Virus record (IMG/VR): IMGVR_UViG_3300025723_000017
Span: 64,001 to 128,000 of that record
Strand: one strand, 5' to 3'
DNA: 64,000 bases
Origin: a virus
Taxonomy: Duplodnaviria > Caudoviricetes
The notes beneath the pieces were generated by a model. That model saw only the letters and a program-made list of their open reading frames with translations. It was not told where the DNA came from and did no database searches. Positions within the stretch are counted from its first letter, which is position 1. Each line of letters begins with the position of its first letter. The translations under genes were made by a program, and so were the position numbers. Of the stretch, positions 19,061-63,977 are shown one piece after another.

Positions 19061-19267
19061 TTGCTTACTTTACTTTCTAAACATCCAGTCAACTTAGACC
19101 AGTTGGGAAAAATGGTTAAATATTGTAGACAAACTTTAGGCGAACGTGGCAAGCAATGGGACTATGACGGCGGATTCCGAGTACGATTTAATTTCAAAGA
19201 AGAAAAAGATCGTACTTGGTTTTATTTTATTTTTGCACCTTACTTAGAAGATCCACATGAAAGGTAA
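19061..19267 (+). CDS. Divergent member of the FxL[RK]W small-protein family
   Basis: YCRQTLG...WDY...FNFKEEKDRTWF. Confidence 0.45.
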   Translation: MLTLLSKHPVNLDQLGKMVKYCRQTLGERGKQWDYDGGFRVRFNFKEEKDRTWFYFIFAPYLEDPHER

Positions 19268-27308: not shown

Positions 27309-27539
27309 ATGAAAAAAGTTTTAATTGATCCCGATAGTTATAAACCCATTAATCCCGGTCGGCTGTCTGAGATGATGACAGATTGGTGTAAACTGCAAAA
27401 TCTAGAATACGGACATGACTATGCCTGGAGTTATCGACCCATATCTCTAAATAACCTTCCTCACATAGTAATGGAATTTCGTTTTTACAACGATGACAGC
27501 AACGTAGCAACCATGTTTGCACTAAAATGGCGTAGATAA
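27309..27539 (+). CDS. FxL[RK]W family small protein
   Basis: Ends FRFYNDDSNVATMFALKWRR. Confidence 0.7.
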   Translation: MKKVLIDPDSYKPINPGRLSEMMTDWCKLQNLEYGHDYAWSYRPISLNNLPHIVMEFRFYNDDSNVATMFALKWRR

Positions 27540-27807: not shown

Positions 27808-28023
27808 ATGATTATAGTTAAAATACCACATAATGATACTCAGTTACTTGCTACTAAACGTGCCATTAAAATGAGTAATTGGTGTAAGGAAAACGGACTA
27901 GTACATAGTAAGGACTATGATTGGGCATTTAGGAATCTGTCAAATGAAATACACTTTAGATTCTATAGTGATGATCAAAGCCTAGCCACCATGTTTGCAC
28001 TATTATTTAACAAAGGCAGATGA
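27808..28023 (+). CDS. FxL[RK]W family small protein, paralogue of 27309
   Basis: WCKENGL..SKDYDW...FRFYSDDQSLATMFALLF. Confidence 0.7.
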   Translation: MIIVKIPHNDTQLLATKRAIKMSNWCKENGLVHSKDYDWAFRNLSNEIHFRFYSDDQSLATMFALLFNKGR

Positions 28024-49246: not shown

Positions 49247-49248
49247 TT

Positions 49249-49506: not shown

Positions 49507-49640
49507 ACGAACAAGAATTTACACCCGAACAAACCGATGCTCCTTGCCCAAACTGCGGTTCGGAACACGAAGATTTGTGCTATCATGAGGGGCATGGCCA
49601 ATACTATTGTGAAACCTGTTGGGATAAGGAAACCGAATGA
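49503..49640 (+). CDS. Small zinc-ribbon protein (45 aa)
   Basis: CPNCGS...YYCETCW; ATGA overlaps at both ends. Confidence 0.6.
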   Translation: MNEQEFTPEQTDAPCPNCGSEHEDLCYHEGHGQYYCETCWDKETE

Positions 49641-51350: not shown

Positions 51351-51769
51351 GCGAGTGGAGTCACTTACCCAATGCCGCGCATATAGATCGTATTATAGTT
51401 GATTTGGCCCTCAATACTAAAAATTGGGCGGAAGTATGGCCTTCGACATGTAATGAATGCCAACAAGTGGCATCAAAGATCTGGGTGGTCAGGAATGCGT
51501 TCCGGGATGCGGCTTTGTCTGCGCTCAATACTCTAGCTTGGAGTTCGGATGGGAATACTGCTCGGAGTTCTGTTCGGAGTTCAGATAATCAGGCGGCAGT
51601 GGGCGCAGCCAGATATCCGATAACAGCCTTAATTGCTTGGCCAGAATCAGCTGAATATCTATCATTACCTCGGGATCAAGTACAGGTCATGGCGGCATTG
51701 GGCGATCAACGAGCGATATTGATGTTACCGGCAGTTATGGCATTTGCCAAATCACGGGAGTTGGCATGA
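51347..51769 (+). CDS. WSHLPNA family protein, copy 1
   Basis: WSHLPNAAHIDRI...ALIAWPES..YLSLP. Confidence 0.7.
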   Translation: MSEWSHLPNAAHIDRIIVDLALNTKNWAEVWPSTCNECQQVASKIWVVRNAFRDAALSALNTLAWSSDGNTARSSVRSSDNQAAVGAARYPITALIAWPESAEYLSLPRDQVQVMAALGDQRAILMLPAVMAFAKSRELA

Positions 51770-52179
51770 CCACAGCTTGGCATCATCTGCCCAATGCCGC
51801 ACATATAGATCGCATCTTAGCTGATCTAAAACTCAATTTTAATAATTGGTCAGCAGTTTGGCATTCACTGATATCTCGGATTGATGATTTTGATGCAGGA
51901 TTTGATGTGGCTGACGATAAGATTGATGAAATGGGCAATACAAAGGAGTGGGATGCGCTGTGGGATGCAGTTTATGGTGTAGCAGAACAAACGTATTGGT
52001 ATGGAGCTCGTGAGGCGGCTAGGCATTCTATAATGTCCTTAATTGCTTGGCCTGAATCAGGCGATTATCTATCATTACCTGTGGATCAAGTACGGGTCAT
52101 GGCTGAGTTGGGTGACCATCGAGCCCGATTAATGTTGCCAGCAGTTATGGCATTTAACATGTACAGGAAAGATGTATGA
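51766..52179 (+). CDS. WSHLPNA family protein, copy 2
   Basis: Same conserved ends, divergent middle. Confidence 0.7.
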   Translation: MTTAWHHLPNAAHIDRILADLKLNFNNWSAVWHSLISRIDDFDAGFDVADDKIDEMGNTKEWDALWDAVYGVAEQTYWYGAREAARHSIMSLIAWPESGDYLSLPVDQVRVMAELGDHRARLMLPAVMAFNMYRKDV

Positions 52180-52577
52180 CTACAGCTTGGAGTCACTTAC
52201 CCAATTCCGCACATATAGATCGCATCTTAGCTGATATAGAAACCAATTCACATAATTGGCGTAAGCCTTTTGGGACTGAGACTGACGGTGCATCTTATAA
52301 GGTGGCTACCGATTTGCTCTACACGTGGGATAAGTCTAAGCATATAGTTTATAATATTATCAGCAGGGAGGCCCAGACGGTGGCTAGGGCCAATCTGGCG
52401 GCCTGGGATGCGGCCTGGTATGCAGCTTGTTTTGCCATATTGGCCTTGATTGCCTGGCCCGAATCAGGTGATTATCTATCATTACCTCGTGATCAAGTGC
52501 AGGTGTTGTCGGCACTGGGTGATTCCAAGGCCACCTTATTATTACCAGCCATTGGAGTGTTGTCATGTGTCAATTGA
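52176..52577 (+). CDS. WSHLPNA family protein, copy 3
   Basis: Same conserved ends; AAWDAAWYAA. Confidence 0.7.
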   Translation: MTTAWSHLPNSAHIDRILADIETNSHNWRKPFGTETDGASYKVATDLLYTWDKSKHIVYNIISREAQTVARANLAAWDAAWYAACFAILALIAWPESGDYLSLPRDQVQVLSALGDSKATLLLPAIGVLSCVN

Positions 52578-52804
52578 ATCTATTGCTCAATGATCAATTG
52601 GGAGATCTATGGTTTACTCACTCACTCCCCACCTATGATGACCATGGCGGACTGTGTGACTATTGGTATAATTTTCTTACCCAAACAGACTCGGCCGGTG
52701 GCGACCCAGATGATCTACTATGTTGGTCGGCTAGGCTAGTTGATGACACGATATATTTCCACAGCGAATCTGCTAGAACATTATTTTTGCTGAGATTTGC
52801 ATAA
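52565..52804 (+). CDS. FxL[RK]W/F family small protein
   Basis: Ends IYFHSESARTLFLLRFA. Confidence 0.65.
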   Translation: MCQLNLLLNDQLGDLWFTHSLPTYDDHGGLCDYWYNFLTQTDSAGGDPDDLLCWSARLVDDTIYFHSESARTLFLLRFA

Positions 52805-53058
52805 TGCAGCCATGTGTGCAACCTGGACTTCTTCCTGACCCTCAATACCTGTCCGTTTATTCCCACAAACTATACCTATACCAGGGTATCCTTTTTAAGG
52901 CTCATAGTTATACTGAGAATTTTTCCCGGTATCTCAGAACCAATCAATTGAATATAGATAAGGTGTTACGGGAGGATTTTAATGCAATTCAATATTACGG
53001 AGCATTTAGATTTCAGCAGGAGCAGGATCTTACTTTATTTTTATTAAAATTTTCCTAA
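52804..53058 (+). CDS. FxL[RK]W/F family small protein
   Basis: Ends FRFQQEQDLTLFLLKFS. Confidence 0.7.
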   Translation: MQPCVQPGLLPDPQYLSVYSHKLYLYQGILFKAHSYTENFSRYLRTNQLNIDKVLREDFNAIQYYGAFRFQQEQDLTLFLLKFS

Positions 53059-53059
53059 C

Positions 53060-53362
53060 ATGTGGCCAATATACATAGCAGTCCCCACTACATATCCCTA
53101 TCGTTTCGACAGACGAGCCAACTATGCAGAAGATGCGTTATCACGCGAGTTTAATCTACCCGTTCATTTTGTAACAAACGAAGGGATTAAGTTTGGTCAT
53201 CCAGCTACTGATGTGTACCGTGTGGAATTACCCAGTGAGCAGGACCAATTATTTTTCCTACTAAAATATAATTTCGTGCTGTTGGATAATAAGCTGGTAG
53301 ACGACTATATTCAATATGAGTTTAACGAAAACGCCAAGTTCCAACTATTTCATTCATTATAA
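53060..53362 (+). CDS. FxL[RK]W/F family protein with C-terminal extension
   Basis: Internal VELPSEQDQLFFLLKY. Confidence 0.6.
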   Translation: MWPIYIAVPTTYPYRFDRRANYAEDALSREFNLPVHFVTNEGIKFGHPATDVYRVELPSEQDQLFFLLKYNFVLLDNKLVDDYIQYEFNENAKFQLFHSL

Positions 53363-53670
53363 ATGATTGACAATTACAGCATTTGGTTTTATAATTAATT
53401 TTTAATTAAACAATTTAAATTTGAGACGTGACGAATGATCGCCATAATTATGCTTTATATTATTGGATTGCTGGGGTTTTTTACACTATTAATGGTGCCT
53501 TCTGCATATAAAGAACAGGGAATTGCGTCTGCCATTTTACACATAATTGTTGCGATGACGATTTTATCAGTTCCTGTTTTTGTTTTGATACTGTAATAAT
53601 TAATATTTTTGTTTGACAATTAAATCATCCTCATTTATAATTAACTTATATTAAACAAACGGAGTATGTA

Positions 53671-53871
53671 ATGAACGAGCAAATTCTAAAACTTTTAGAG
53701 CAATCGGGACTACAGCCTTATTATCCAGCTCAAGAACAACAAATTGAACAATTTGCTCAGTTGCTGGTTCGGGAATGTCTAACAGTAATCAATCAACCCA
53801 ATGGTGTTGGCGATGATGATGTTATTCGAATCAGTAATGATGTACAACAATATTTCGGAGTTGAAGAATGA
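53671..53871 (+). CDS. MNERI...HFGVEE family protein
   Basis: QFAQLLVREC...YFGVEE. Confidence 0.7.
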   Translation: MNEQILKLLEQSGLQPYYPAQEQQIEQFAQLLVRECLTVINQPNGVGDDDVIRISNDVQQYFGVEE

Positions 53872-54098
53872 ACGAACTTATTCGACAACTGGCTGAACAG
53901 GCTGGAATGATTATTGGTGATACTAGTGAGTTTGATATGGCAAAAATCATGCCGAAGGAACTAAAGTTCGCCCAGTTGATTGTAGAAGAATGTATTGCCA
54001 AAATCTCACAAGAGCAGGACTTAGCTGAACAAAATTGGCTTTGTGATAATGGTGTACACATTTGTCACGAACTAACAAAACATTTCGGAATTGAATGA
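53868..54098 (+). CDS. MNERI...HFGVEE family protein
   Basis: KFAQLIVEEC...HFGIE. Confidence 0.7.
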   Translation: MNELIRQLAEQAGMIIGDTSEFDMAKIMPKELKFAQLIVEECIAKISQEQDLAEQNWLCDNGVHICHELTKHFGIE

Positions 54099-54246
54099 TG
54101 ACACAGATTAGAGTGATTCCGAGATATGTTGATCATCTATGGTATCCTATACTTGTAAAAACCACAACAGGTTATAATCGAATCATAGAAATGCAAGGTC
54201 GTGCTGTGAATGAATGGAACGACAAAATAAGAAATGGGAGAAGATT

Positions 54247-54408
54247 ATGAAAGTCTATATCGGCTATGAATGCTATAACAACTATGCTGACATTTTGAAA
54301 ACTGTAGTAAAGGTGTTTGACGATGAAGTCAAAGCTCTTGTATGGAAAGAAGAATTCGTAGAAACAGAAACAGAGTTTCGTGAATATACTGTGATGACGG
54401 TAGAATAA
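54247..54408 (+). CDS. Hypothetical protein
   Basis: GGGAG RBS before MKVYIG. Confidence 0.5.
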   Translation: MKVYIGYECYNNYADILKTVVKVFDDEVKALVWKEEFVETETEFREYTVMTVE

Positions 54409-54462
54409 AGTTGACAGTTAAAACTTTATCCACTATAATGAATTATGAATAAGGAGATGGCG

Positions 54463-54918
54463 ATGAAGAAAGGCGAAATGTTAGGCAAGATGTTAGTACT
54501 GGTCACCAATGCCCATGCAGGACAGTTTGATCGTGGTGGCTCGCCCTACATCCTCCACCCCCTGAAGGTCATGCACTACCTCAAGAGCGATGATGAAGAG
54601 CTGATGGTGATGGCTCTAGGGCACGATGTTATTGAGGATACTAATGTGACTTACGAGGACCTTCGTCAAGCGGGCATCAGCGAGCGAGCAATCAAAGGCA
54701 TTGCTGCACTGACTAAACTGCCTGGGCAGACTCTAGACGAGTACAAGGAAAGGGTCTTCGCTAACCCAGACGCAATGCGTGTTAAGCTAGCTGATCTACG
54801 TCACAATACAGACATTCGCAGACTCAAGGGTGTTACCGAAAAAGACATTGCACGTATGGCCAAGTATCACACATTCTTCATGGAAATACAGGCTAGACTG
54901 GTCGACAATAAAATCTAG
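54463..54918 (+). CDS. HD-domain (p)ppGpp hydrolase-like protein (small alarmone hydrolase type)
   Basis: AHAGQFDRGGSPYILHP, GHDVIEDT, VKLADLRHN. Confidence 0.8.
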   Translation: MKKGEMLGKMLVLVTNAHAGQFDRGGSPYILHPLKVMHYLKSDDEELMVMALGHDVIEDTNVTYEDLRQAGISERAIKGIAALTKLPGQTLDEYKERVFANPDAMRVKLADLRHNTDIRRLKGVTEKDIARMAKYHTFFMEIQARLVDNKI

Positions 54919-54941
54919 AATGAACGAACGAATTCGGCAAC

Positions 54942-55262
54942 TTGCTAAAAGAATACTACATGGGTTCTAACTCCTATTACATTATCCAACGACCAATGGA
55001 AGATTCTGAACTTGAATGGTATGATGATTCTTCTGTTTGTTATGTCGCTGGTCAGCCCTCTTACCTTGATTGGGTTATGGACCCACTGGACGCTCGGCGA
55101 TTTAAATCTATTACCGAGATTCGACGTTATATTACCAATGTATTGAAATTTAACCCACTTAGTGTGATTAACCTTAAGGCCTGGGAATTTCATCTAATCA
55201 CTATGATTCCTCCAACAGACATCTTCACTGGAGCGCACACTATGGGCTTGCTTAAAATATGA
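54942..55262 (+). CDS. Hypothetical protein (start uncertain; possible frameshift from MNERIRQLA at 54920)
   Basis: ORF track; upstream MNERI-type start in another frame. Confidence 0.5.
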   Translation: MLKEYYMGSNSYYIIQRPMEDSELEWYDDSSVCYVAGQPSYLDWVMDPLDARRFKSITEIRRYITNVLKFNPLSVINLKAWEFHLITMIPPTDIFTGAHTMGLLKI

Positions 55263-55483
55263 CCCACATCTCCATGTGGGATTCCCTTCGTCTGAACCGA
55301 AGCAGACAATATCATAATTTCATTCAGTATCTGCAGCGGCAACACGAACCGGCTCTTGTCACATTGGATTTCGTTATTGAAATACTTCGCCGAGATTGGC
55401 ACTGTCAATTACTGAAGGAAATGGGTTTATTTATTTTTGAAAACGACGCCGATGCCACAGTATTTTTACTGAAGTTTAGTTAA
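55259..55483 (+). CDS. FxL[RK]W/F family small protein
   Basis: Ends FIFENDADATVFLLKFS. Confidence 0.7.
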   Translation: MTHISMWDSLRLNRSRQYHNFIQYLQRQHEPALVTLDFVIEILRRDWHCQLLKEMGLFIFENDADATVFLLKFS

Positions 55484-55556
55484 TTGTCAATATTGACAAT
55501 TACATCAATTCAGCTTATAATAACTATAACTTAACAAAACCTATTAGAGGTCAATA

Positions 55557-55736
55557 ATGGATACAGAATTACGTGAGCAATTTTTACAATTTCTTCGCGA
55601 AGAGTTAACTATTGATGTTACTACCGAAAGTGTTTATAGTGGCGGTATGTTTGGTGATAGCATGTATAGTAAGGTTCGTACATTGAACATTATGCTTGGT
55701 AATGAGGTTATTTCGTCTATCTGCCTTGACAGTTAA
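55557..55736 (+). CDS. Hypothetical protein (59 aa)
   Basis: GAGG RBS, own promoter. Confidence 0.5.
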   Translation: MDTELREQFLQFLREELTIDVTTESVYSGGMFGDSMYSKVRTLNIMLGNEVISSICLDS

Positions 55737-55764
55737 TTAAATCCAGTATAAGGAATTATTAATC

Positions 55765-55971
55765 ATGCTACAACTAGTAGAATTTATCAAAACATTTTAT
55801 CGCGCTATAAAATATGGCTATTTTGAATGTGATTGGATAGGTAGAGACACCTGGCCCCAAAAATCTTATTTCGCCATTGATGCAACTTATTATGATGGTT
55901 ATTGGGCTTCAATTAATATTTACAAATTATATATTGGATGGGTGCCGCACCTGCCTGACTGTCAGAATTAA
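55765..55971 (+). CDS. Hypothetical protein
   Basis: AAGGA RBS; YYDGY. Confidence 0.5.
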   Translation: MLQLVEFIKTFYRAIKYGYFECDWIGRDTWPQKSYFAIDATYYDGYWASINIYKLYIGWVPHLPDCQN

Positions 55972-56019
55972 AAATTTGACAATTAATACACGTGTCTTTA
56001 TAATTAACTGTTAATTAAC

Positions 56020-56229
56020 ATGACTGCGCCTATCACTATTTCCTCTACTGTATTAACTCGTGCGGTGCGTAGTCTATTACATGAGGGTGAGCAGTTGCCT
56101 ATCCGGGAAGAAATTCTATATCAGGCTTTTGATATTGCAGCAATAATGGATGATTATAACTCTCACGGATTCACTGTATTATTCAAATCAGAATATGCAG
56201 CTACTATGTTTTTATTAAGGTTTTCGTGA
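56020..56229 (+). CDS. FxL[RK]W family
   Basis: FKSEYAATMFLLRFS. Confidence 0.7.
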   Translation: MTAPITISSTVLTRAVRSLLHEGEQLPIREEILYQAFDIAAIMDDYNSHGFTVLFKSEYAATMFLLRFS

Positions 56230-56230
56230 T

Positions 56231-56494
56231 ATGATAATCACTGTGCCAGATAAAGTGTTTCGGCGTGCTACTGCTTCTATCGGAGCGCATTACGAGTTTC
56301 CTACATTACGTACCACTGCTACTATTGGAACATCTGACCTGTATCCTGACTTCTTTAGCATTTACAATATTAAAAATTATAAGTTAATTCCACAAATTGA
56401 CGAATTTAACGATTCGGAACCCTTCATTGTGATGTGGCGTATTGAGTTTAAATCAGATGCCGACGCTGCTTACTTTTTACTGAAGTTTAGCTAA
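56231..56494 (+). CDS. FxL[RK]W family
   Basis: FKSDADAAYFLLKFS. Confidence 0.7.
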   Translation: MIITVPDKVFRRATASIGAHYEFPTLRTTATIGTSDLYPDFFSIYNIKNYKLIPQIDEFNDSEPFIVMWRIEFKSDADAAYFLLKFS

Positions 56495-56495
56495 C

Positions 56496-56759
56496 ATGGC
56501 TAACATGACATCAGAACATCTAGCTGAACTGGCAGAAGAAATTAATCTAACAATAGATTGGGAAATTCTTTGCACATTAGACCCGACTAGAAAAAATTGG
56601 ATAAGGATAAAATTTGCTTCCCAAACCAAATCGATAGACAGAGGTGCGATTGATACTTGGTGCCAACAGACGTTTGTTGGTGGCTATTATATAATTAGAG
56701 ATCATATATATATTTCCAGAGAAGAAGATGTTGTAATGTTTAAACTGAAGTGGGCGTGA
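56496..56759 (+). CDS. FxL[RK]W family
   Basis: ISREEDVVMFKLKWA. Confidence 0.75.
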   Translation: MANMTSEHLAELAEEINLTIDWEILCTLDPTRKNWIRIKFASQTKSIDRGAIDTWCQQTFVGGYYIIRDHIYISREEDVVMFKLKWA

Positions 56760-56763
56760 TAAA

Positions 56764-57108
56764 ATGAATAGTCACCAAAGAAGAATTGCAAAGCGTAAGA
56801 GCATGCAGGATCGGCGTAAAAGGATAGATATACTATTTGAAAAGATCGTCCCGTTCTACTACGCTTCTGTTTCGCCGGTATACACCATTACTCTTAATAT
56901 TCGTTTTCCTAATTTCACTATTGTAGACCATGCAATGTATGATTATGTACCCGACAACTATTGCATAGTGCAGGTACTGTCAAAGGTTGCTGATTGGATA
57001 GAACAGCAGGATATTACACTTTGGAAACCTGATGATTCCAACAACCATCTTCAGAGATATATTATATCCAATGAGTTATATTCATTGATGGCATTAAGGT
57101 GGTCATGA
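56764..57108 (+). CDS. FxL[RK]W family variant
   Basis: ISNELYSLMALRWS. Confidence 0.65.
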   Translation: MNSHQRRIAKRKSMQDRRKRIDILFEKIVPFYYASVSPVYTITLNIRFPNFTIVDHAMYDYVPDNYCIVQVLSKVADWIEQQDITLWKPDDSNNHLQRYIISNELYSLMALRWS

Positions 57109-57356
57109 TGGTCACTGATAACCAACGTAGATTAACTCATCAGGTTGTAATAGCTCCTGCACCTTATGCTAAAATACAACAAATATGCACATGGTGTCAA
57201 AATCAATTTGGAAAGAGTTTTGGTATTATTGATAGTGACATTGATGGGACGTGGAGAGGTGTATATCATGAGATATCATCTGGTGTACCAATTTCATATA
57301 AATTCTTATTCGATCACGAAGATGATGCTGTACTTTTTGCGTTGAAATGGTGTTAG
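57105..57356 (+). CDS. FxL[RK]W family
   Basis: FDHEDDAVLFALKWC. Confidence 0.75.
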   Translation: MMVTDNQRRLTHQVVIAPAPYAKIQQICTWCQNQFGKSFGIIDSDIDGTWRGVYHEISSGVPISYKFLFDHEDDAVLFALKWC

Positions 57357-57357
57357 T

Positions 57358-57603
57358 ATGTCTTATTATACAGATAATTTAACAAAACACAATACAGAAT
57401 ATACCGCACGCGGCGAAGGTATTCGATATCGTACTCGCTCAATGTTTATGGGTCAGGTTTACAAATGGTTAAACGAACACAATATTGAATATACATGGGT
57501 AGGCCACCAGACTAGTGAGAGAGGCAGTATTACAACTTATTACCTCACTGTGAGTATACTTAATGAGCATGACGCCATGCTGTTTATGTTAGCATGGAAA
57601 TAG
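57358..57603 (+). CDS. FxL[RK]W family
   Basis: ILNEHDAMLFMLAWK. Confidence 0.7.
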   Translation: MSYYTDNLTKHNTEYTARGEGIRYRTRSMFMGQVYKWLNEHNIEYTWVGHQTSERGSITTYYLTVSILNEHDAMLFMLAWK

Positions 57604-57604
57604 A

Positions 57605-57838
57605 ATGAAGAATTTGGGATTTAATTATAAAATATCCGCAGAGGTGGGCAATTACCACCAACTCGATAATATGTTTACATGGTGTAATGAAACATTCGGC
57701 CCTAGATATGGTTCATTTAGTAACAACCAAGGCAGGTGGGCTTGTTTGTGGCAACAATACCAAAAGACACATGGATATTTCTGGTACTTTAGACAGGAAG
57801 AAGATGCTGCATTTTTTACACTGAGGTGGATAAAATGA
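57605..57838 (+). CDS. FxL[RK]W family
   Basis: FRQEEDAAFFTLRWIK. Confidence 0.75.
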   Translation: MKNLGFNYKISAEVGNYHQLDNMFTWCNETFGPRYGSFSNNQGRWACLWQQYQKTHGYFWYFRQEEDAAFFTLRWIK

Positions 57839-58020
57839 AAAATGATAATTTTATGGTTAGTAAACCGGGGGAAATTTATATTAGGGTGCCTACAATAACC
57901 AAGGAAATACTCATGTGGCTTGACAATTATGAAGGAGATGGTACATATTCACGAGGATGGTATGGTATATATTTTACTAGAGAAGAAGATGCTGTCATGT
58001 TTAGCCTGAGGTGGATATGA
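57835..58020 (+). CDS. FxL[RK]W family
   Basis: FTREEDAVMFSLRWI; close paralogue of 60503. Confidence 0.75.
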   Translation: MKNDNFMVSKPGEIYIRVPTITKEILMWLDNYEGDGTYSRGWYGIYFTREEDAVMFSLRWI

Positions 58021-58250
58021 GTCAATATAGTCAAGATTCTTTATCACGACGTACATATCACGATAATTGGATTCTGATCCAGTTACCTCGTCTACTTTCG
58101 CTTGACTGTATTGTATGGTGTTATGAGAAATTTGGTGAAGAACGAATATTACGTGGGACTTGTACGGGTAAGTGGCTTCATCGTGGCGCAGGTAACATTG
58201 AATTTGAGCGTGAGGAAGACGCTGTATTATTTACCCTGAGGTGGCTATAA
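58017..58250 (+). CDS. FxL[RK]W family
   Basis: FEREEDAVLFTLRWL. Confidence 0.75.
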   Translation: MSQYSQDSLSRRTYHDNWILIQLPRLLSLDCIVWCYEKFGEERILRGTCTGKWLHRGAGNIEFEREEDAVLFTLRWL

Positions 58251-58489
58251 TGTACTATGTCAAGAAATCTAGAATCCGTCTACAGATATCACGATTATAT
58301 CAAAATTGGACAAACATACTTGGTCCTTCCTGGTTCTTTTATACGTTTGAAGAAAGGTATCAACAGTTTGATGTGTGGATGGAGAGAGAACATGGTATAA
58401 TAACAATTCGTTCGAATAATAAAAGCCAAACAAAACTTGGATTTAAGAGCCAAGGTGACTTTTTAATGTTTATGCTACGCTGGAGTTAA
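58250..58489 (+). CDS. FxL[RK]W family
   Basis: FKSQGDFLMFMLRWS. Confidence 0.75.
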   Translation: MYYVKKSRIRLQISRLYQNWTNILGPSWFFYTFEERYQQFDVWMEREHGIITIRSNNKSQTKLGFKSQGDFLMFMLRWS

Positions 58490-58554
58490 AATACCACTTA
58501 CTATAGAGTTAACTTTTTGTTGACATTTAATTCATTCTTAATTAAAATTGATAT

Positions 58555-58908
58555 ATGTATACCGAAAACCTATTGATTGATTTTCACAACCTAACGAGTG
58601 TTAATCTCCCTCAACACACTTGCATATCTCTACAGCAATATCTGCTAAAGGGATGGGATCCAGGTGGATTCCTCAGTGCAGTTCTTATGAATGATATGAT
58701 GTTGGCTGTGACTCGCGCAGATCCGGTTAACCGCAAGTTTTTATGGGATATCGGACGTTGGGTCTACACTCAAGCGCCACCTGGCAGCTGGGGCAGTAGA
58801 GAAATGGTACTGAATTGGATGAATGATCTAGGCGGTCATAGAAGTAAGTACGCAAACACTATAGAACATGAACACTTAATCCATGTGTTAAAGAGGCCTG
58901 AGCCATGA
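58555..58908 (+). CDS. Conserved hypothetical phage protein, unrelated to the array
   Basis: PGGFLSAVLMND...RAD...PPGSWGS; own promoter at about 58520. Confidence 0.65.
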   Translation: MYTENLLIDFHNLTSVNLPQHTCISLQQYLLKGWDPGGFLSAVLMNDMMLAVTRADPVNRKFLWDIGRWVYTQAPPGSWGSREMVLNWMNDLGGHRSKYANTIEHEHLIHVLKRPEP

Positions 58909-59153
58909 AAAAAACTTCTACGTTACCTCGTAACGGACAGTATGAAATCTTTAGTAATGCAGGAAGAACCTATTGTTTTGATGATCCTGGATTTAAATGG
59001 ATGTACACACCTGAGGGTATGTTTGATTGGATCAGAGCACAAGATCCAGCATTATGGACAGACATGACCCAACTGCATGGATGGCGTGATGATAATTCGG
59101 CTTTTTATCTACAACCTAAACTTTATCTATTGTGGAAATTGAGATGGGTATGA
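58905..59153 (+). CDS. FxL[RK]W family variant
   Basis: LQPKLYLLWKLRWV. Confidence 0.65.
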   Translation: MKKTSTLPRNGQYEIFSNAGRTYCFDDPGFKWMYTPEGMFDWIRAQDPALWTDMTQLHGWRDDNSAFYLQPKLYLLWKLRWV

Positions 59154-59413
59154 TTTCTGTGCCTGTGGGTACTTATAACTATCATTATCCTACTTCTGGT
59201 GTAATTGTTGTAATTGCTGAGATTCCGCAAGCGTTTCAACATGCGCATCATGCTATAATAGCCAAACGCGGTATTCCTACGACTGGTCAATGGTTGAAAA
59301 CAATGAAGCAGTTGTGGTGGGAAGAATATGGCGTTACTGTTATCAAAGACTGGTTTGCACTTGAGTTTGCAACTGAACAAGAATTGACTATGTTTTTGTT
59401 GAGGTGGTCATGA
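59150..59413 (+). CDS. FxL[RK]W family
   Basis: FATEQELTMFLLRWS. Confidence 0.75.
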   Translation: MISVPVGTYNYHYPTSGVIVVIAEIPQAFQHAHHAIIAKRGIPTTGQWLKTMKQLWWEEYGVTVIKDWFALEFATEQELTMFLLRWS

Positions 59414-59616
59414 AGATTCGAATTCCAGTTGAAGGCAAGTGTTTTGACAAAATTATTCAATCATGTGTTGAATCGACATCTACTACTTTGGATATATGGG
59501 ATTTTATAGAGAACCAGACAGGGGCTCGACGTAAATGGAGTTGGTGGCATCAACAAAATTACTTGGTATTTACATCAGAGAAAGATTATGTCATGTTTTT
59601 GTTGAGGTGGTCATGA
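59410..59616 (+). CDS. FxL[RK]W family
   Basis: FTSEKDYVMFLLRWS. Confidence 0.75.
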   Translation: MKIRIPVEGKCFDKIIQSCVESTSTTLDIWDFIENQTGARRKWSWWHQQNYLVFTSEKDYVMFLLRWS

Positions 59617-59858
59617 GAATTTATACTAAAGTGATAGTACCTAGACATTATAATCGAACGGAACATTCTACCATGCGAAACTGGTGTAAGGAAAACTTCG
59701 GCGTTAGCAACAGTAAGAAAGATAAGGATCTTGGTTACCAAAATCCTTGGTATGCTCGTAGCGACTGGTATCTGATTAACAGACAATATGAGCGGGCGTC
59801 ATGCTTTTGTTTTCGCAATCCTGCGCATGCCACATTATTTGCCCTGAGGTGGTCATGA
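59613..59858 (+). CDS. FxL[RK]W family
   Basis: FRNPAHATLFALRWS. Confidence 0.75.
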   Translation: MRIYTKVIVPRHYNRTEHSTMRNWCKENFGVSNSKKDKDLGYQNPWYARSDWYLINRQYERASCFCFRNPAHATLFALRWS

Positions 59859-60049
59859 AATTTTACACAGTAAAGATGCCAGAGGCGTATGCCAGAATAC
59901 AATGGTGTAGAAAGACCTTTGGACCACCATTTCAAAATTTACCAAGGGAACAACGCCAGTGGAGTAATATACGTTGGTATCGTTGTTATGGCTCTCTTTG
60001 TTTTCGTGAAGAATCAGATTATCTGTTATATTTGTTAAGGTGGGCATAA
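59855..60049 (+). CDS. FxL[RK]W family
   Basis: FREESDYLLYLLRWA. Confidence 0.75.
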   Translation: MKFYTVKMPEAYARIQWCRKTFGPPFQNLPREQRQWSNIRWYRCYGSLCFREESDYLLYLLRWA

Positions 60050-60255
60050 TGACTGAATGGCATGCGGTAATGTATAACTTTCCATCATATGATACCCTAA
60101 CCAGAATTGAATACGCAAGGAATATGCAAACATGGTTTAAGGAAAACAATATTGAAGATTGGCATACTCTACGCGATGAAGACGATAATATGATGATCGG
60201 ATATGCCTTTAAACATGAGCGTGATGCTATAATGTTTTCATTGAGGTGGTTATGA
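60049..60255 (+). CDS. FxL[RK]W family
   Basis: FKHERDAIMFSLRWL. Confidence 0.75.
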   Translation: MTEWHAVMYNFPSYDTLTRIEYARNMQTWFKENNIEDWHTLRDEDDNMMIGYAFKHERDAIMFSLRWL

Positions 60256-60506
60256 TGGCGCGTGTCGAACAATCTAGATTAGAATATCCTGTGGTAATAA
60301 AAGTCATATCTTCAGATGAGCTTAACGAAATCGCAACCTGGTGTCATGAACAGTTTGGCCTGAAGGTTACTGTCGATATTCATGCCAATTATATCTTTGA
60401 CAGAACATGGCGATTAAGTAGCAACTCTAATTATTTCTCCGGATACTCATTCTCATTTGATCGAGAGCAGGATGCTATTTTATTTGCACTGAAGTGGGTG
60501 AAATGA
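60252..60506 (+). CDS. FxL[RK]W family
   Basis: FDREQDAILFALKWVK; resembles 57105. Confidence 0.75.
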   Translation: MMARVEQSRLEYPVVIKVISSDELNEIATWCHEQFGLKVTVDIHANYIFDRTWRLSSNSNYFSGYSFSFDREQDAILFALKWVK

Positions 60507-60691
60507 AAAATAATGATTTTGTAATTGGTAAACCGGGAGCAATTTATGTTAGGTCGGGCTCGTTAATAACTAACGAAATAATTGCATGGCTCGATGCCTA
60601 TGAAGGGAAAGGAGTGTATTCGCGAGCTTTGCATGGTATATATTTTTCTAGAGAAGAAGATGCTGTCATGTTTAAACTGAGGTGGGCGTAG
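60503..60691 (+). CDS. FxL[RK]W family
   Basis: FSREEDAVMFKLRWA. Confidence 0.75.
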   Translation: MKNNDFVIGKPGAIYVRSGSLITNEIIAWLDAYEGKGVYSRALHGIYFSREEDAVMFKLRWA

Positions 60692-60692
60692 T

Positions 60693-60917
60693 GTGAGAAT
60701 ATTATTATTTAAACCTACTAACGTTAATCCCACGTGGTGGTATAATTTCCTAGATGCGCACCCAGGGTATACAAATACTGTTGAGCAAATAAATCTAGTT
60801 TTATCGCCATTTAATTGTAGATTTTCTGTGAATAATACAAAGAAGGGGTATGGAGCTAGGTATTTACATTTCAAAACAAAAAGTGATTATCTTATGTTTA
60901 TACTGAGGTGGTCATAA
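60693..60917 (+). CDS. FxL[RK]W family
   Basis: FKTKSDYLMFILRWS. Confidence 0.75.
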   Translation: MRILLFKPTNVNPTWWYNFLDAHPGYTNTVEQINLVLSPFNCRFSVNNTKKGYGARYLHFKTKSDYLMFILRWS

Positions 60918-61123
60918 TGCATAAGCTCAAGACAGCAGCAGGCCTATGGACTATACTTCAGACACAACCCAATAGTAACATTCGTGAAATTAACCAATGG
61001 GCTCGAGATACTTTTGGTTCATCTGAAGTAGCATGGCCGCCACGTTGGATGTACTTATCTGGTGATAACTACGGATTTCTGTTTGAAGAAGATGCTATGC
61101 TTTTTAGCTTGAGGTGGCTATGA
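60917..61123 (+). CDS. FxL[RK]W family
   Basis: FLFEEDAMLFSLRWL. Confidence 0.75.
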   Translation: MHKLKTAAGLWTILQTQPNSNIREINQWARDTFGSSEVAWPPRWMYLSGDNYGFLFEEDAMLFSLRWL

Positions 61124-61353
61124 GTTTACCAGAGCGAGATCGTTGGCCCCACGTGCTACGTTTGCCTGATTATCGCCGATACATCACAGATGCGTTAGAG
61201 GCGAAGGACCCTAGGGTAATATGGTGCCGTGAGAATTTAAAATCCAATCAATGGCGTTATGATGGGTGGCATCCCATAAATTTTCGATTCAAGAATCGTG
61301 CAGATGCTGTTATGTTTTCCTTGAGGTGGATATGCATAAACCCATTGTATTAA
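61120..61353 (+). CDS. FxL[RK]W family with read-through tail
   Basis: FKNRADAVMFSLRWI-CINPLY. Confidence 0.75.
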   Translation: MSLPERDRWPHVLRLPDYRRYITDALEAKDPRVIWCRENLKSNQWRYDGWHPINFRFKNRADAVMFSLRWICINPLY

Positions 61354-61577
61354 CCCCAGAAGTAACCACTCGAATTTGGAAAAATTGGCTGATCAAGGTA
61401 GAAGGTGAGACTGGCCGAATCCCTCATAGTATGCGCTATAGTTACGACGCTCCTCATCACGATCGGTTTCAATCCTGGTTATGGAATCAAGGTGCGGTAC
61501 TTCGAAAAATCAATAAAAACTATCATATTGAAGCATATGATTCCGATGCAACTATGATTTCTTTGAAGTGGGGATAG
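61332..61577 (+). CDS. FxL[RK]W family
   Basis: AYDSDATMISLKWG. Confidence 0.7.
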   Translation: MHKPIVLTPEVTTRIWKNWLIKVEGETGRIPHSMRYSYDAPHHDRFQSWLWNQGAVLRKINKNYHIEAYDSDATMISLKWG

Positions 61578-61631
61578 ACAATTGATTAATTTTCGTTTAT
61601 AATCACAATAATGTAATCAATTGAGATCAGC

Positions 61632-61820
61632 ATGGCTATAAGACATTTTCCATATAAAGTTGCAGTCAGCGGGTCATACCAACGACAGGATATACATGAA
61701 TGGTGCGATAAAAATATCGGCGAATATGGTATCATGTGGGGACGTATGGTCATGTCCAACAAACCCTACCGATTCCGGTTTAAGCGTGATGCGGTGCTGT
61801 TTACTCTGAGGTGGGCATAA
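61632..61820 (+). CDS. FxL[RK]W family
   Basis: FRFKRDAVLFTLRWA. Confidence 0.75.
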   Translation: MAIRHFPYKVAVSGSYQRQDIHEWCDKNIGEYGIMWGRMVMSNKPYRFRFKRDAVLFTLRWA

Positions 61821-62053
61821 TGTATGTCGCATTTTCAGGGCTGAGGCATGTACATGAAACTCCATCATGGTTTCAAAACTTTCTCGTGGAATTAACAAAA
61901 AAGACAAATTCCTCCCGACTTTCTGTTAAAACTCTAGGCGAAGAATTGGCATTATATGGAGCAGTTTATAGAGTTCCTAACATTAACATCGGGGCCTCCT
62001 TGGAATTCACTACAGAGCAGGATTATCTTATGTTTGTATTGAGGTGGTCGTGA
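61820..62053 (+). CDS. FxL[RK]W family
   Basis: FTTEQDYLMFVLRWS. Confidence 0.75.
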   Translation: MYVAFSGLRHVHETPSWFQNFLVELTKKTNSSRLSVKTLGEELALYGAVYRVPNINIGASLEFTTEQDYLMFVLRWS

Positions 62054-62226
62054 TAACCAGAATCTATATTCCCGGCATGGTGTCAGCGGAGATGAATACT
62101 ATATTTAAATGGTGTCTAGATCATTTCGGTGAATATCGTGATCAATGGAATTACAATATTATGACTGGTGTCTGGGAGTTTAGAAAATCCAGTGATGCTA
62201 TGCTTTTTAAATTGAGGTGGGCATGA
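62050..62226 (+). CDS. FxL[RK]W family
   Basis: FRKSSDAMLFKLRWA; GTG start. Confidence 0.7.
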   Translation: MITRIYIPGMVSAEMNTIFKWCLDHFGEYRDQWNYNIMTGVWEFRKSSDAMLFKLRWA

Positions 62227-62411
62227 AGATTATATTGTATATGAATCACAGAGACGACGCAATATTGCAATGGATTATAGACAATAATATTCGGCATACA
62301 GTATTAGAAATAAACGTGCATTATCGTTCCTTTGAACTGGTGCCTACAGTAATTGAAATTCCAGACGACTCTGTGGATTTAGATCTTTATTTGTTGAGGT
62401 GGTCACAATGA
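62223..62411 (+). CDS. FxL[RK]W family variant
   Basis: IPDDSVDLDLYLLRWSQ. Confidence 0.7.
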   Translation: MKIILYMNHRDDAILQWIIDNNIRHTVLEINVHYRSFELVPTVIEIPDDSVDLDLYLLRWSQ

Positions 62412-62641
62412 ACGCAAAACAGCGACGAATTTGGAGAAGAGGGTTTGATCATAAGGTAATACTTGAGTATAAGGTAATATTTGATTCTGATATTACCTAT
62501 TGGAGTGAGTATGAAGCAAGAGCATGGTGTCGTGAAATTTTCGGAGAAGATTTTAAAGATTGGGGACACATACATGGAGAAGGCATTTTTTATTTTCGTA
62601 AACCAGAACATGCAACTTTATTCAGGTTGAAATGGACATAA
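62408..62641 (+). CDS. FxL[RK]W family
   Basis: FRKPEHATLFRLKWT. Confidence 0.75.
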   Translation: MNAKQRRIWRRGFDHKVILEYKVIFDSDITYWSEYEARAWCREIFGEDFKDWGHIHGEGIFYFRKPEHATLFRLKWT

Positions 62642-62883
62642 CAACTCAGTATACTAAAGATGGCTATTGGGTTGTTGTTCCCCCACTTGTAACTCCTTCG
62701 TGGTATGTTCGACTATTTGATGAGGCGATTAAACAAGCCCGGCAAAAAAGGTCAAGTGCGCATTACATGCTTGCACAACTGTTGAGTCAGTATAATGCCC
62801 ACTATTGTTTTAGCAATGATGGGTTTAGGATTAGATTTGATCACGAACAGGATTATATAATGATGTTATTAAAATGGAGTTGA
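62632..62883 (+). CDS. FxL[RK]W family
   Basis: FDHEQDYIMMLLKWS. Confidence 0.7.
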   Translation: MDITTQYTKDGYWVVVPPLVTPSWYVRLFDEAIKQARQKRSSAHYMLAQLLSQYNAHYCFSNDGFRIRFDHEQDYIMMLLKWS

Positions 62884-62892
62884 TGATTATTT

Positions 62893-63126
62893 GTGAAATA
62901 TACTAATTTCTATAAAGGATGGCATTATATTCAAATGTCCAGTGACATGGATGTAGTGAAATGGGGAGACTGTTATCAATGGTGTAGTGAGATATTTGGA
63001 TTCGAACATCACACAAATTCTAGATGGGCTTATGTTGGAAACGGAGCATTTTATTTTGCCGACGAACATGATTTTCTATTAGTAACATTAAAATTTCCAC
63101 ATTCCTACATAATAAATAAAGTATGA
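62893..63126 (+). CDS. FxL[RK]W family
   Basis: WCSEIFG...RW...FADEHDFLLVTLKF. Confidence 0.7.
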   Translation: MKYTNFYKGWHYIQMSSDMDVVKWGDCYQWCSEIFGFEHHTNSRWAYVGNGAFYFADEHDFLLVTLKFPHSYIINKV

Positions 63127-63704
63127 AGATAATTTATATACACGGAGCAAACGCCACTAGTGAAAGTTTTACTAGGATTAGAGAACACATCAAACAAGAC
63201 GACTTGGTTATTGATTATGATAGTCGTAATGGATTTGACTATAATCTCGATCAAATGGTTGATACATTACGAGATTTTGACAATTTGTTCTTTGTAGGAC
63301 ACAGCTTGGGCGGAATTTACGCATTATATCTAGCGGCTAAATTTTATTCTCACAAAACCCTAGGTGGGATAACACTCAGTACTCCCTACGGAGGATGTCA
63401 ACAGGCTGACTATGCCAAATATTTTGTACCCTGGAATAGATTAATGCGTGATATTGGAATAATTAGTCCAGTTATGCAGGGTGTTAAAGATTTGGTATTG
63501 CCCTCAATTTGGGCTAATATTGTTACAACATCAGGAACCAGTCCTTGGATATTAGAACCAAACGATGGTGTCGTTACACATGCCAGTATGCGGGCTCGTG
63601 CTGACATGGAATTAATTGAATTGCCATTAAATCATTACGAAGTAGTTATCAGTAATCGCACTATTACAACAATACAACATCAAATTGATTTGACAAATCG
63701 TTAA
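63123..63704 (+). CDS. Alpha/beta hydrolase (lipase/esterase-like)
   Basis: YIHGA oxyanion region, GHSLGG nucleophile elbow, STPYGG, NDGVV, NHYE. Confidence 0.85.
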   Translation: MKIIYIHGANATSESFTRIREHIKQDDLVIDYDSRNGFDYNLDQMVDTLRDFDNLFFVGHSLGGIYALYLAAKFYSHKTLGGITLSTPYGGCQQADYAKYFVPWNRLMRDIGIISPVMQGVKDLVLPSIWANIVTTSGTSPWILEPNDGVVTHASMRARADMELIELPLNHYEVVISNRTITTIQHQIDLTNR

Positions 63705-63761
63705 TTTATTGCTATCATAGCAATATATGATAACTCAATATCTTTTACATATTAGCAACGC

Positions 63762-63977
63762 ATGATAGCGGCCGAAATCGAAACCGTTCAATTTAATCAT
63801 ATTGACACAATACATATAGAACGATGGTGTAGCGAGATGCTGGGCCCAAAAGCTATATTTCGTGATCAAGTCTCAGATGAGTATCCGTGGACAGTTAGTT
63901 ATTCAGGACTTGGCACTTATCTGTGGCACTTTGCTCATGCAGAATCAGCTACTTTATTTGCTCTTAGATGGCGATGA
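63762..63977 (+). CDS. FxL[RK]W family
   Basis: WCSEMLG...FAHAESATLFALRWR. Confidence 0.75.
   Translation: MIAAEIETVQFNHIDTIHIERWCSEMLGPKAIFRDQVSDEYPWTVSYSGLGTYLWHFAHAESATLFALRWR

Follow-up and report, generated by a model that had tools for sequence, protein, structure and literature searches.

Gene Content and Organization of the Array

The window analyzed here, a stretch of 64,000 nucleotides, comes from an uncultured jumbo phage represented by a 154-kb IMG/VR record (CheckV completeness of 45%). Approximately 36 genes in the window, and 48 in the whole record, encode proteins with a C-terminal F.F..E.DA..F.L[RK]W sequence. These proteins form an undescribed, phage-only domain of approximately 65 residues, which we name the LRW-tail family. 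All family genes are on the + strand, the majority inside 17 kb, and the array continues past the window as far as record position 133,678, adding 15 members. Between 56.0 and 63.1 kb, 29 family genes lie back to back, broken by one unrelated 117-aa gene (58555-58908). The features of the window are as follows.

Outlying genes and sub-operon 1
19061..19267, +, degenerate family member; YC..TLG and F.F..E.D retained, LRW absent
27309..27539, +, family gene, distant outlier (…FALKWRR)
27808..28023, +, family gene, distant outlier, degenerate tail (…FALLFNKGR)
52565..52804, +, family gene, upstream outlier (…FLLRFA)
52804..53058, +, family gene (…FLLKFS)
53060..53362, +, possible degenerate member by our own reading, missed by the profile; internal LFFLLKY, then 40-residue extension
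55259..55483, +, family gene (…FLLKFS)
55493-55521, 12/12 promoter, 3' of family gene 55259..55483
55976..56004, +, consensus sigma-70 promoter, TTGACA-17-TATAAT, 12/12, heads sub-operon 1 (56020-58489)
56020..56229, +, family gene (…FLLRFS)
56231..56494, +, family gene (…FLLKFS)
56496..56759, +, family gene (…FKLKWA)
56764..57108, +, family gene, 114 aa, basic N-terminal extension (…MALRWS)
57105..57356, +, family gene, WC.E.FG subtype; modelled, b-a-b-b-a, pLDDT 82
57358..57603, +, family gene (…FMLAWK), first in old 3-gene segmental duplication
57605..57838, +, family gene, WC subtype (…FTLRWIK)
57835..58020, +, family gene, closest paralog pair with 60503-60691 (64% identity)
58017..58250, +, family gene, WC subtype; L009 ortholog 71% identical
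58250..58489, +, family gene, ends sub-operon 1; no adjoining start, Arg codon CGC rather than AGG

Sub-operons 2, 3, and next
58520..58548, +, sigma-70 promoter, 11/12, heads sub-operon 2
58555..58908, +, unrelated 117-aa lead gene of sub-operon 2; no Pfam match
58905..59153, +, family gene (…WKLRWV)
59150..59413, +, family gene (…FLLRWS)
59410..59616, +, family gene (…FLLRWS)
59613..59858, +, family gene, WC subtype (…FALRWS)
59855..60049, +, family gene, WC subtype (…YLLRWA)
60049..60255, +, family gene (…FSLRWL)
60252..60506, +, family gene, WC subtype (…FALKWVK)
60503..60691, +, family gene (…FKLRWA)
60693..60917, +, family gene, GTG start, P.W[FY]..F subtype (…FILRWS)
60917..61123, +, family gene (…FSLRWL)
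61120..61353, +, family gene, 7-residue tail beyond LRW containing the next gene's start
61332..61577, +, family gene (…ISLKWG), ends sub-operon 2
61575..61603, +, sigma-70 promoter, 11/12, heads sub-operon 3
61632..61820, +, family gene, WC subtype (…FTLRWA)
61820..62053, +, family gene, P.W[FY]..F subtype; second modelled, pLDDT 90
62050..62226, +, family gene, GTG start overlaps stop; L023 ortholog 90% identical
62223..62411, +, family gene (…YLLRWSQ)
62408..62641, +, family gene, WC subtype (…FRLKWT), basic N-terminal extension
62632..62883, +, family gene, P.W[FY]..F subtype (…MLLKWS)
62893..63126, +, family gene, WC subtype, 9-residue extension beyond LKF
63123..63704, +, alpha/beta-hydrolase gene (Abhydrolase_6) within array, non-member
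63690..63718, +, sigma-70 promoter, 11/12 with extended -10 TG, heads next sub-operon
63762..63977, +, family gene, WC subtype (…FALRWR), last in window

Degenerate copies are scarce (e.g., 19061, 27808, and perhaps 53060). The old segmental duplication relates the three genes at 57358-58020 to those at 60049-60691.

A scan for [FLMIVY].[LM][RKA][WF] at most 8 residues from the stop in ORFs of at least 45 aa found 34 of 271 ORFs on the + strand of the window and 2 of 266 on the - strand; the C-terminal motif counts for the 154-kb record are 49 and 3, respectively. A profile built from the copies detects 47–48 members in the record, all of them on the + strand. These motif, strand, and profile counts confirm the original prediction of an array with a fixed C-terminal motif, and we are highly confident in the anatomy of the family and array as described. 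The outliers that it listed (19061, 27309 and 27808, 52.5–55.5 kb, and 63762) are all real. Its total of about 38 genes in the window is revised to approximately 36, and the back-to-back run in 56.0–63.1 kb, given as 27 genes, is arranged as described and contains 29. The W-C-x-E-x-F-G core assigned to many members is found in 17 of the 48 in the record and is nearly invariant in the best database relatives.

The gaps of the array contain five 12/12 and three 11/12 sigma-70 promoters, and 37 perfect ones occur across the 154-kb record. Consensus promoters stand ahead of runs of 7–13 genes, and three promoter cassettes in the record lie directly behind terminator-like hairpins. Given that consensus sigma-70 promoters head the sub-operons, the sequence points to the early class, that is, to an early-transcribed array.

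Predicted Fold

AlphaFold models of two subtypes (pLDDT 82/pTM 0.70 and pLDDT 90/pTM 0.77) predict the same small alpha/beta fold, beta-alpha-(alpha)-beta-beta-alpha, as the shared fold proposed in the original prediction would require. In both models F.F..E.DA..F.LRW is the last strand and helix (tail helix pLDDT 91–96). Because the residues kept in the tail are mostly hydrophobic (A, F, L, W), the helix is probably buried in the core of the fold; the 1–3 residues beyond the tryptophan vary (S, A, L, I, C, K, R, G, T). The matches from fold searches are all generic, of ferredoxin/ACT/RRM-like type (best Z 6.4 and 4.8), the best structural neighbor being the ACT domain of Bacillus anthracis TyrA (Z 6.3, rmsd 2.6 over 61 residues), a chance-level score. 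The models have the secondary-structure order of ACT/ferredoxin-like domains, beta-alpha-beta-beta-alpha(-beta), but lack the fourth strand, the ligand-site residues, and any sequence similarity.

Codon Bias at the Gene Junctions

In translational coupling, ATGA or TAATG stop-start overlaps with a Shine-Dalgarno sequence inside the upstream gene are standard operon architecture. The array likewise has stop/start overlaps (23 ATGA, 7 TAATG-like, and 3 GTGA among 46 junctions in the record) with a GAGG-type site 5–8 bases upstream inside the preceding coding sequence; unlike the textbook case, this site coincides with the almost invariant Leu-Arg-Trp of a protein family and recurs at dozens of successive junctions in many phages. 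The Leu-Arg-Trp codons are kept as YTG AGG TGG, giving GAGGTGG five bases ahead of the ATGA overlap. The junction strings quoted previously are present, TTGAGGTGGTCATGA at 59399 and 59602 and CTGAGGTGGTCATGA at 59844.

The proposed comparison with genome-wide arginine codon usage reveals a strong excess: the arginine of LRW is AGG in 23 of 30 cases versus 4.1% of arginine codons in 64 long ORFs (binomial p = 2e-26), and the preceding leucine is NTG in 36 of 50 versus 24% genome-wide, although the copies are related and the codon counts are therefore not independent events. Because the rest of each gene has diverged, simple inheritance of the bias is unlikely. Only Leu(-2) and Arg(-1) show it, the other conserved columns having genome-typical codons. 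Across all loci, AGG encodes the arginine in 116 of 169 genes with an adjoining start and in 0 of 7 without one (Fisher p = 4e-4), and leader genes have ordinary GGAG-type sites. Based on the confinement of the bias to these two codons and of AGG to positions beside starts, GAGGTGG is very probably the Shine-Dalgarno site of the next cistron. Arrays L011, L012, and L027, of low GC content, have AGA in place of AGG, so this role is not universal. No RNA structure gating the junction Shine-Dalgarno site was found.

Distribution, Selection, and Recombination

The LRW-tail family has no match in Pfam, PHROGs, NCBIfam, PADLOC, or PDB sequences. The profile search recovers 2,923 50%-identity clusters (E <= 1e-3), all small metagenomic proteins. 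In 24 viral loci of 20 kb each there are 2–27 members per locus, on a single strand in every locus, and five related jumbo-phage records have 7–37 matches apiece in one cluster; a T4-type capsid gene (gp23) was found in the three such records checked. The suggested search for copy number in relatives thus gives 7–48 copies among jumbo phages and, with close relatives differing by whole-gene indels, bears out the proposed turnover.

Multigene families of large eukaryotic DNA viruses, such as ASFV MGF110/360/505 and the poxvirus ankyrin families, are also tandem diverged paralogs of copy number varying by isolate and are thought to act on the host. The LRW-tail array resembles them in its tandem diverged paralogs and variable copy number and differs in lacking homology, in its far smaller genes, and in its prokaryotic operon structure; a host-directed role would be only inferred here. 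Bacillus phage G offers another comparison, a lineage-specific expansion to approximately 35 zinc-ribbon copies (Iyer et al. 2021, PMC7824862), in which a giant phage genome also has dozens of copies of one small domain of little-known role. Unlike the zinc ribbons, described in one phage, the LRW-tail family is a different, undescribed domain, its members are chained, and it is common to many uncultured jumbo phages.

The paralogs are ancient, as judged from sequence divergence: their median best identity within the genome is approximately 38%, and for 32 of 48 members the nearest relative lies in another phage or contig. The array was described as expandable, and these values do not support reading that as recent bursts. 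Individual paralogs are kept across distinct phages at 40–70% identity, and the pooled dN/dS of 15 orthologs is 0.12; the genes are real and under purifying selection, and this ratio is unlike that of an arms race still under way on that timescale.

Per-gene dS between two related phages spans 0 to 0.64, indicative of mosaic exchange. Among related phages, whole genes are inserted, deleted, or replaced with edges at the junction or 3' block, the indel boundaries in L015/L017 being TTGAG[G/A]TGGNCATGA. L023 is 99.6% identical to the record over 1.15 kb, and the identity begins exactly at the EEDAVLFALRWA-coding block, the upstream part of the gene being otherwise unrelated; this is the one event, in L023 alone, in which a crossover inside the conserved block is directly seen. 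Gene-edge indels would also survive preferentially under selection for intact genes. We consider it likely that the junction is a recombination linker, and codons and breakpoints together support the earlier proposal that one sequence serves as protein end, very probable ribosome-binding site, and homology block.

In T4-type phages, promoter-early stem-loop (PeSL) cassettes, short conserved signals between small nonessential early genes, act as homology for whole-gene insertion, deletion, and replacement between close relatives in modular shuffling of hyperplastic regions (Arbiol et al. 2010, PMC2839356; Comeau et al. 2014, PMC4122927). This record similarly has strong sigma-70 promoter cassettes, some behind terminator-like hairpins. 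Whereas PeSLs are noncoding promoter-terminator elements linking unrelated ORFans, the shared block of the array is the last 12–15 codons with the ribosome-binding site and start codon, and it joins members of one protein family.

Proposed Function

On balance, we favor as the probable explanation an array of at least 48 ancient paralogs, early and translationally chained, in an uncultured jumbo phage with related complete genomes that have T4-type capsid genes. Analogous to a PeSL cassette, the tail would act as a portable linker made of coding sequence, and a gene transferred through recombination at the shared 3' block would be ready for expression on arrival. Conserved residues look like fold determinants, while loops, N-terminal extensions, and charge (pI 4–10) vary freely. 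Given these apparent fold determinants, the variable loops and charge, and the conservation of each paralog across phages, our tentative best guess is a repertoire of single-domain binders that would be made early and act in the cytoplasm, each with a different host or competitor target, and that may serve host takeover or counter-defense.

Other functions would use the same domain differently. An RRM/KH/ACT-like module could make the paralogs sequence-specific RNA or DNA binders steering phage or host expression, in keeping with weak structural neighbors that include RRM, KH, and ACT domains (Z 4.7–6.4) and with basic N-terminal extensions in some members (e.g., 56764-57108 and 62408-62641). 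We find this unlikely: such Z values are what the tool gives for unrelated chains, member pI ranges from 4.1 to 10.0 with 18 of 48 below pI 6, and the alignment has no evident conserved surface basic or aromatic patch. It is quite unlikely that the units are selfish cassettes or a gene nursery, spreading through a recombination-proficient, self-expressing tail, with most copies of little or no use to the phage; the gain, loss, and replacement of whole genes at the junction, the copy-number range, and the dS spread would fit, but the ortholog dN/dS, the retention of single paralogs at 40–70% identity in distinct phages, and the few degenerate copies argue against it.

The original prediction saw in the tail a constant docking helix, by which members would dock on one hub (ClpX/ClpP, RNA polymerase, or the ribosome) while the variable part recruited different clients. 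Only the tail is shared by every member, the phage has a gene for ClpX with its zinc finger (10483-11673), and ClpX and ClpP are noted in T4-related "group 2.2" jumbo phages (Iyer et al. 2021, PMC7824862). Both models nevertheless make the tail the last helix of the domain, with the residues it keeps mostly hydrophobic; the variable residues after the tryptophan are unlike a C-terminal degron, and ClpX, some 45 kb away, is tied to the array by the shared genome alone, so that we judge docking very unlikely.

For the favored translationally chained array, the Leu-Arg-Trp codons are thus very probably where the ribosome binds to translate the following gene, and they probably also mark where whole genes swap.

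Extent and Layout of the Array

The C-terminal pattern of the LRW-tail family (small proteins ending in F.F..E.DA..F.L[RK]W) occurs in 34 of the 271 plus-strand ORFs of at least 45 aa in the window versus 2 of the 266 on the minus strand, and in 49 plus-strand versus 3 minus-strand ORFs across the whole record, so that the gene family proposed from its terminal motif in the original prediction is real. The 34 window copies in alignment A1 give a profile that recovers 47–48 members in the record, all on the plus strand, and none on the minus strand. The nearly continuous run claimed for 56.0–63.1 kb lies where it was placed, with 29 genes by our count rather than the 27 claimed, and the outlying copies named with it exist, the one at 19061 being degenerate. 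Fifteen further family genes lie past the window end, and the array measures about 17 kb in all. The run and other small genes upstream of it are as follows (window coordinates):

56020–63126, plus strand: 29 LRW-tail genes back to back, broken once by a 117-aa gene from outside the family and followed by an alpha/beta-hydrolase gene
49234–50160 and 53671–54098: a second paralog family, five small genes ending in …HFGVEE or …HFGIE (at 49234, 49637, 49912, 53671, and 53868)
51347–52577: a third paralog family, three tandem genes (133–140 aa) that start …W.HLPN[AS]AHIDRI and have …LIAWPESG[DE]YLSLP in common; the copy at 51766–52176 has no Pfam match
54445–54918: a 157-aa protein that matches HD domains weakly (HD_4 at E 8e-5, short of the Pfam cut-off); its gene is preceded by its own perfect promoter and has other early small genes around it

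Junctions and Codon Usage

Each junction consists of the 3' end of a family gene, with its Leu-Arg-Trp codons, and the overlap of its stop with the start of the next gene. Among 46 junctions in the record, the overlap is ATGA in 23, TAATG-like in 7, and GTGA in 3. The array has the sequence features of a translationally coupled operon, namely a stop-start overlap or a gap of at most 4 nt between cistrons and a Shine-Dalgarno-like sequence 5–9 nt before the start, within the upstream gene; the distance from GAGGTGG to the ATG is five bases, a near-optimal spacing for bacterial initiation. Translational coupling in which the upstream gene contains the ribosome-binding site is textbook knowledge; what sets this array apart is that the site coincides with an invariant motif of a protein family and is repeated at dozens of junctions.

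Codon usage at the motif departs strongly from that of the genome. AGG encodes the arginine of Leu-Arg-Trp in 23 of 30 copies versus 4.1% of arginine codons in 64 long ORFs of the record (p = 2e-26), the excess that the original prediction had asked to see checked, and the preceding leucine is NTG in 36 of 50 versus 24% genome-wide, counts that come from related copies and hence not from independent events. At other arginine positions of the family genes the AGG share is 9%. Given protein identities of about 25–40% elsewhere in the copies, synonymous sites should long have been randomised. A per-column codon test confines the bias to the leucine and arginine codons, with weaker preferences for TTT at the conserved phenylalanine (38/39, p = 0.0025) and GCT at the alanine (p = 0.017); the conserved phenylalanine at −13, the glutamate, and the aspartate have genome-typical codon proportions. 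Because the bias is limited to two codons, selection at the nucleotide level appears to target chiefly G-AGG-TGG rather than the block in full. The same restriction led us to reject concerted evolution of the entire 3' block.

The bias follows the presence of a downstream start. Counted over 22 distinct related loci together with the record, the arginine is AGG in 116 of 169 genes whose stop adjoins a start versus none of the 7 in which it does not (Fisher p = 4e-4), and the last gene of sub-operon 1 (56020–58489) uses CGC. Leader genes, which directly follow promoters, have ordinary GGAG or AGGAG sites, which argues that the host uses Shine-Dalgarno initiation. In some low-GC arrays (L011, L012, and L027) the arginine codon is AGA instead of AGG, suggesting that the Leu-Arg-Trp protein motif is kept for its own sake and that the ribosome-binding site is superimposed on it. 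Structure-gated coupling was considered and ruled out, since folding energy and ribosome-binding-site accessibility of the junction RNA equal those of shuffled flanks, with no occluding structure.

Age, Selection, and Turnover

The best paralog match of a member within the record has a median identity of 38%, with 64% over full length in one pair only, and paralogs this divergent rule out a recent accordion-like expansion. For 32 of the 48 members the best match is in another contig, in a sample of 20 kb per contig. Repeats at the DNA level within the array are of three kinds only: 3' blocks of 30–58 nt, promoter cassettes, and a single segmental duplication of three genes, which is old and spaced 2.67 kb apart. 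A diversity-generating retroelement was rejected, as neither an RVT_1 match in the record (45% complete) nor a template/variable repeat pair was found. The pooled dN/dS is 0.12 for fifteen orthologous pairs from two related jumbo phages that are about 91% identical (L015, IMGVR_UViG_3300043418_000072; L017, 3300046092_000062). Within this one array, the dS of individual genes ranges from 0 to 0.64, which suggests frequent gene-by-gene (mosaic) exchange. As judged by these sequence comparisons, the array is an old, maintained repertoire rather than a recent burst.

Gene order and number are not fixed. The record and the related locus L023 are 99.6% identical over 1.15 kb, and the identity starts exactly at the block GAAGAAGATGCTGTG..., which encodes EEDAVLFALRWA; the upstream part of the gene bearing this block is otherwise unrelated between the two, and a stretch of 0.57 kb in L023 corresponds to about 6 kb (roughly 24 genes) in the record. 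L015 and L017 differ by one inserted gene and by a two-gene indel, each flanked at either end by TTGAG[G/A]TGGNCATGA, with homology picking up directly after the ATGA. From these two comparisons we conclude that whole genes come and go at the junction, with at least one crossover within the conserved block. Edges of this kind would also be favored by selection that keeps genes intact. The codon bias, the dependence of AGG on an adjoining start, and the one crossover in the block together support the earlier proposal that the junction serves at once as protein end, ribosome-binding site, and homology block.

The closest described mechanism is the PeSL-mediated modular shuffling of T4-type phages (PMC2839356, PMC4122927). 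The LRW-tail junction works similarly in shuffling, in that indels and replacements are bounded by a common short motif in both the record/L023 crossover and the L015/L017 indels. The PeSL motif is a non-coding sigma-70 promoter and terminator stem-loop; in contrast, the linker of the array is coding, comprising tail, ribosome-binding site, and start, and is the property of a single protein family. Iyer et al. (2021) describe jumbo-phage gene families expanded in particular lineages, among them the zinc ribbons of phage G with about 35 copies, and the passages of that work that were searched do not mention the LRW-tail family; our literature searches found no description of it.

Promoters and Transcription

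The gaps in the array contain sigma-70 promoters at these window positions:

53367, 53613, 54411, 55493, and 55976: 12/12 promoters
58520, 61575, and 63690: 11/12 promoters

Promoters occur only at the heads of sub-operons, each serving a run of 7–13 chained genes. The record contains 37 perfect TTGACA-N17-TATAAT sequences, compared with about 0.05 expected by our own estimate. By analogy with T4-type phages, this layout is probably that of early regions transcribed by the host polymerase. In 55976–56022 and 58520–58557, the sub-operon promoter stops 15 and 6 bases short of the first ATG, respectively, so transcripts of these two sub-operons would be leaderless or nearly so. Several promoters have in common a conserved leader, …ttaaacaaa..ggag.

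Elsewhere in the window, the minus strand of 31876–45790 has 21 perfect TTGACA-N17-TATAAT promoters in 14 kb, each at the head of one or a few small genes. The G+C content of this region is 0.41–0.47 versus 0.33–0.42 across the remaining window, and it looks like a second early module of different composition. Terminator-like hairpins followed by a T run lie directly 5' of a perfect sigma-70 promoter at record positions 32,644 and 148,459 and window position 22119; in arrangement, these composite units resemble the PeSL cassettes of T4-type phages.

Fold and Database Relatives

The members match no characterised domain in the libraries searched: ten had no match in Pfam or PHROGs (v4), and 34 had none in PADLOC or NCBIfam. 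When 1.84 billion cluster representatives were searched exhaustively with the profile, 2,923 clusters matched at E ≤ 1e-3; among the matches listed, the proteins are about 50–140 aa, a few with two tandem domains, and the relatives conserve W-C-x-E-x-F-G, the central tryptophan, F-x-F, D-A, and F-x-L-R-W. Searching 118 of the database relatives against Pfam-A and PHROGs gave scattered single matches only (E ≥ 0.004). Two family domains per protein are found in P0012, P0035, P0106, and P0125 (105–141 aa). Stop loss at a junction, fusing neighboring genes, would give such proteins. Longer proteins in which the domain is fused to others were looked for and not found.

AlphaFold2 predicts the order b1-a1-b2-b3-a2 for the WC-type gene at 57105–57353 (pLDDT 82, pTM 0.70), and the same order with one extra helix for 61820–62050, which has a different N-terminal half (pLDDT 90, pTM 0.77). 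The agreement of the two models suggests that the modelled subtypes share a fold, as had been suggested for a check, in which the conserved tail forms the last strand and helix. Most conserved positions carry an aromatic or aliphatic residue, and the conserved residues are probably fold determinants; loop lengths, N-terminal extensions, and charge (pI 4.1–10.0) vary freely. The best structural Z scores are 6.4 and 4.8 for the first and second model, where values below 8 may reflect only a common arrangement, and structure searches, including VIA, gave generic ferredoxin-, ACT-, and RRM-like alpha/beta neighbors at background scores. Foldseek against the PDB returned nothing at E ≤ 0.001 and a profile search of PDB sequences nothing below E 0.75. 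Matches in BFVD are uncharacterised proteins of uncultured phages, plus weak ones to Atu_ph07 and BcepSauron, and those in the protein atlas are unnamed viral clusters only.

Phage Genome and Distribution of the Family

The record, of which the window covers positions 64,001–128,000, is 154,059 bp with a CheckV completeness of 45%, which implies a genome of about 340 kb. Few large genes have matches, and those that do encode a DNA ligase, a ClpX-type ATPase with a zinc finger, and an endonuclease, proteins of phage replication and maintenance. The phage-encoded ClpX homolog (AAA_2 and ClpX C4 zinc finger) lies at 10483–11673; no tRNA genes were found in the window. The closest cultured relatives are the distant jumbo phages XacN1, SCTP-2, Stenotrophomonas CM1, RsoM2USA, and Pelagibacter phage Mosig, with 25–42% identity over half of one protein. 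The LRW-tail family was not found in XacN1, CM1, RsoM2USA, or Mosig, and SCTP-2 has one marginal partial match.

A pattern scan of IMG/VR identified 24 loci with 2–27 members per 20 kb, on one strand in every locus. In five related jumbo records (265–374 kb) the match counts are 33, 26, 37, 7, and 18, and the matches are clustered together almost without exception. A T4-type gp23 capsid protein is encoded in each of three complete related records that have the family. No copy was detected when 185,579 prokaryote genomes were scanned once with a pattern, neither blastn with the array nor tblastn with two members gave a match in 50,697 phage records, and a word-index protein search returned the window's own proteins only. 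A metagenome scan found no close relative of this phage's array, the best match being 46% identical.

Function and Significance

We posit that the array consists of early operons of chained cassettes in which the structural tail of the family may have acquired further roles, as a ribosome-binding site and as a recombination linker, so that cassettes could be exchanged without loss of expression. Our tentative reading, which we hold with somewhat less than even confidence, is that the proteins are a library of small binders directed against different host or competitor targets. It draws on several features taken together: expression that is probably early, a single domain located in the cytoplasm, a core that is conserved while the surface varies, paralogs that are individually conserved, and presence or absence that varies between phages. 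A constant docking helix, with phage ClpX/ClpP as a speculative partner, had been proposed in the original prediction; both models place the tail as the last strand and helix of the domain, the docking-helix and ClpX ideas are both unsupported for the array, and we regard a shared docking tail as very unlikely. Regulators that bind nucleic acid, a role for which RRM-like folds appear among the background-level structural neighbors, seem to us unlikely. That the genes are largely selfish cassettes, an idea favored by whole genes that come and go and opposed by a pooled dN/dS of 0.12, we judge to be quite unlikely.

The reading as a binder library can be extended to a possible but doubtful picture in which the LRW tail makes the genes integrase-free, promoter-free cassettes. 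Any member would then fit the array of any co-infecting jumbo phage of the clade through homologous recombination in the 3' block of about 45 nt and, with its own ribosome-binding site, be expressed at once. The thousands of metagenome variants would be a shared stock of early binders built on a single scaffold and serving host takeover or anti-defence, from which each phage samples 7–50.

To our knowledge, large paralog families are rarely kept by phages. Here, one tiny domain takes about 5% of an estimated 340-kb genome and is named in no curated library, yet has thousands of metagenome relatives. With tail codons that would serve as both ribosome-binding site and recombination linker, the array may be a compact route to a library that is both shuffleable and expressed. 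If its members are host-directed binders, they would offer many small inhibitors, so far unexploited, of bacterial proteins or defence systems, as well as a natural scaffold for binder design.
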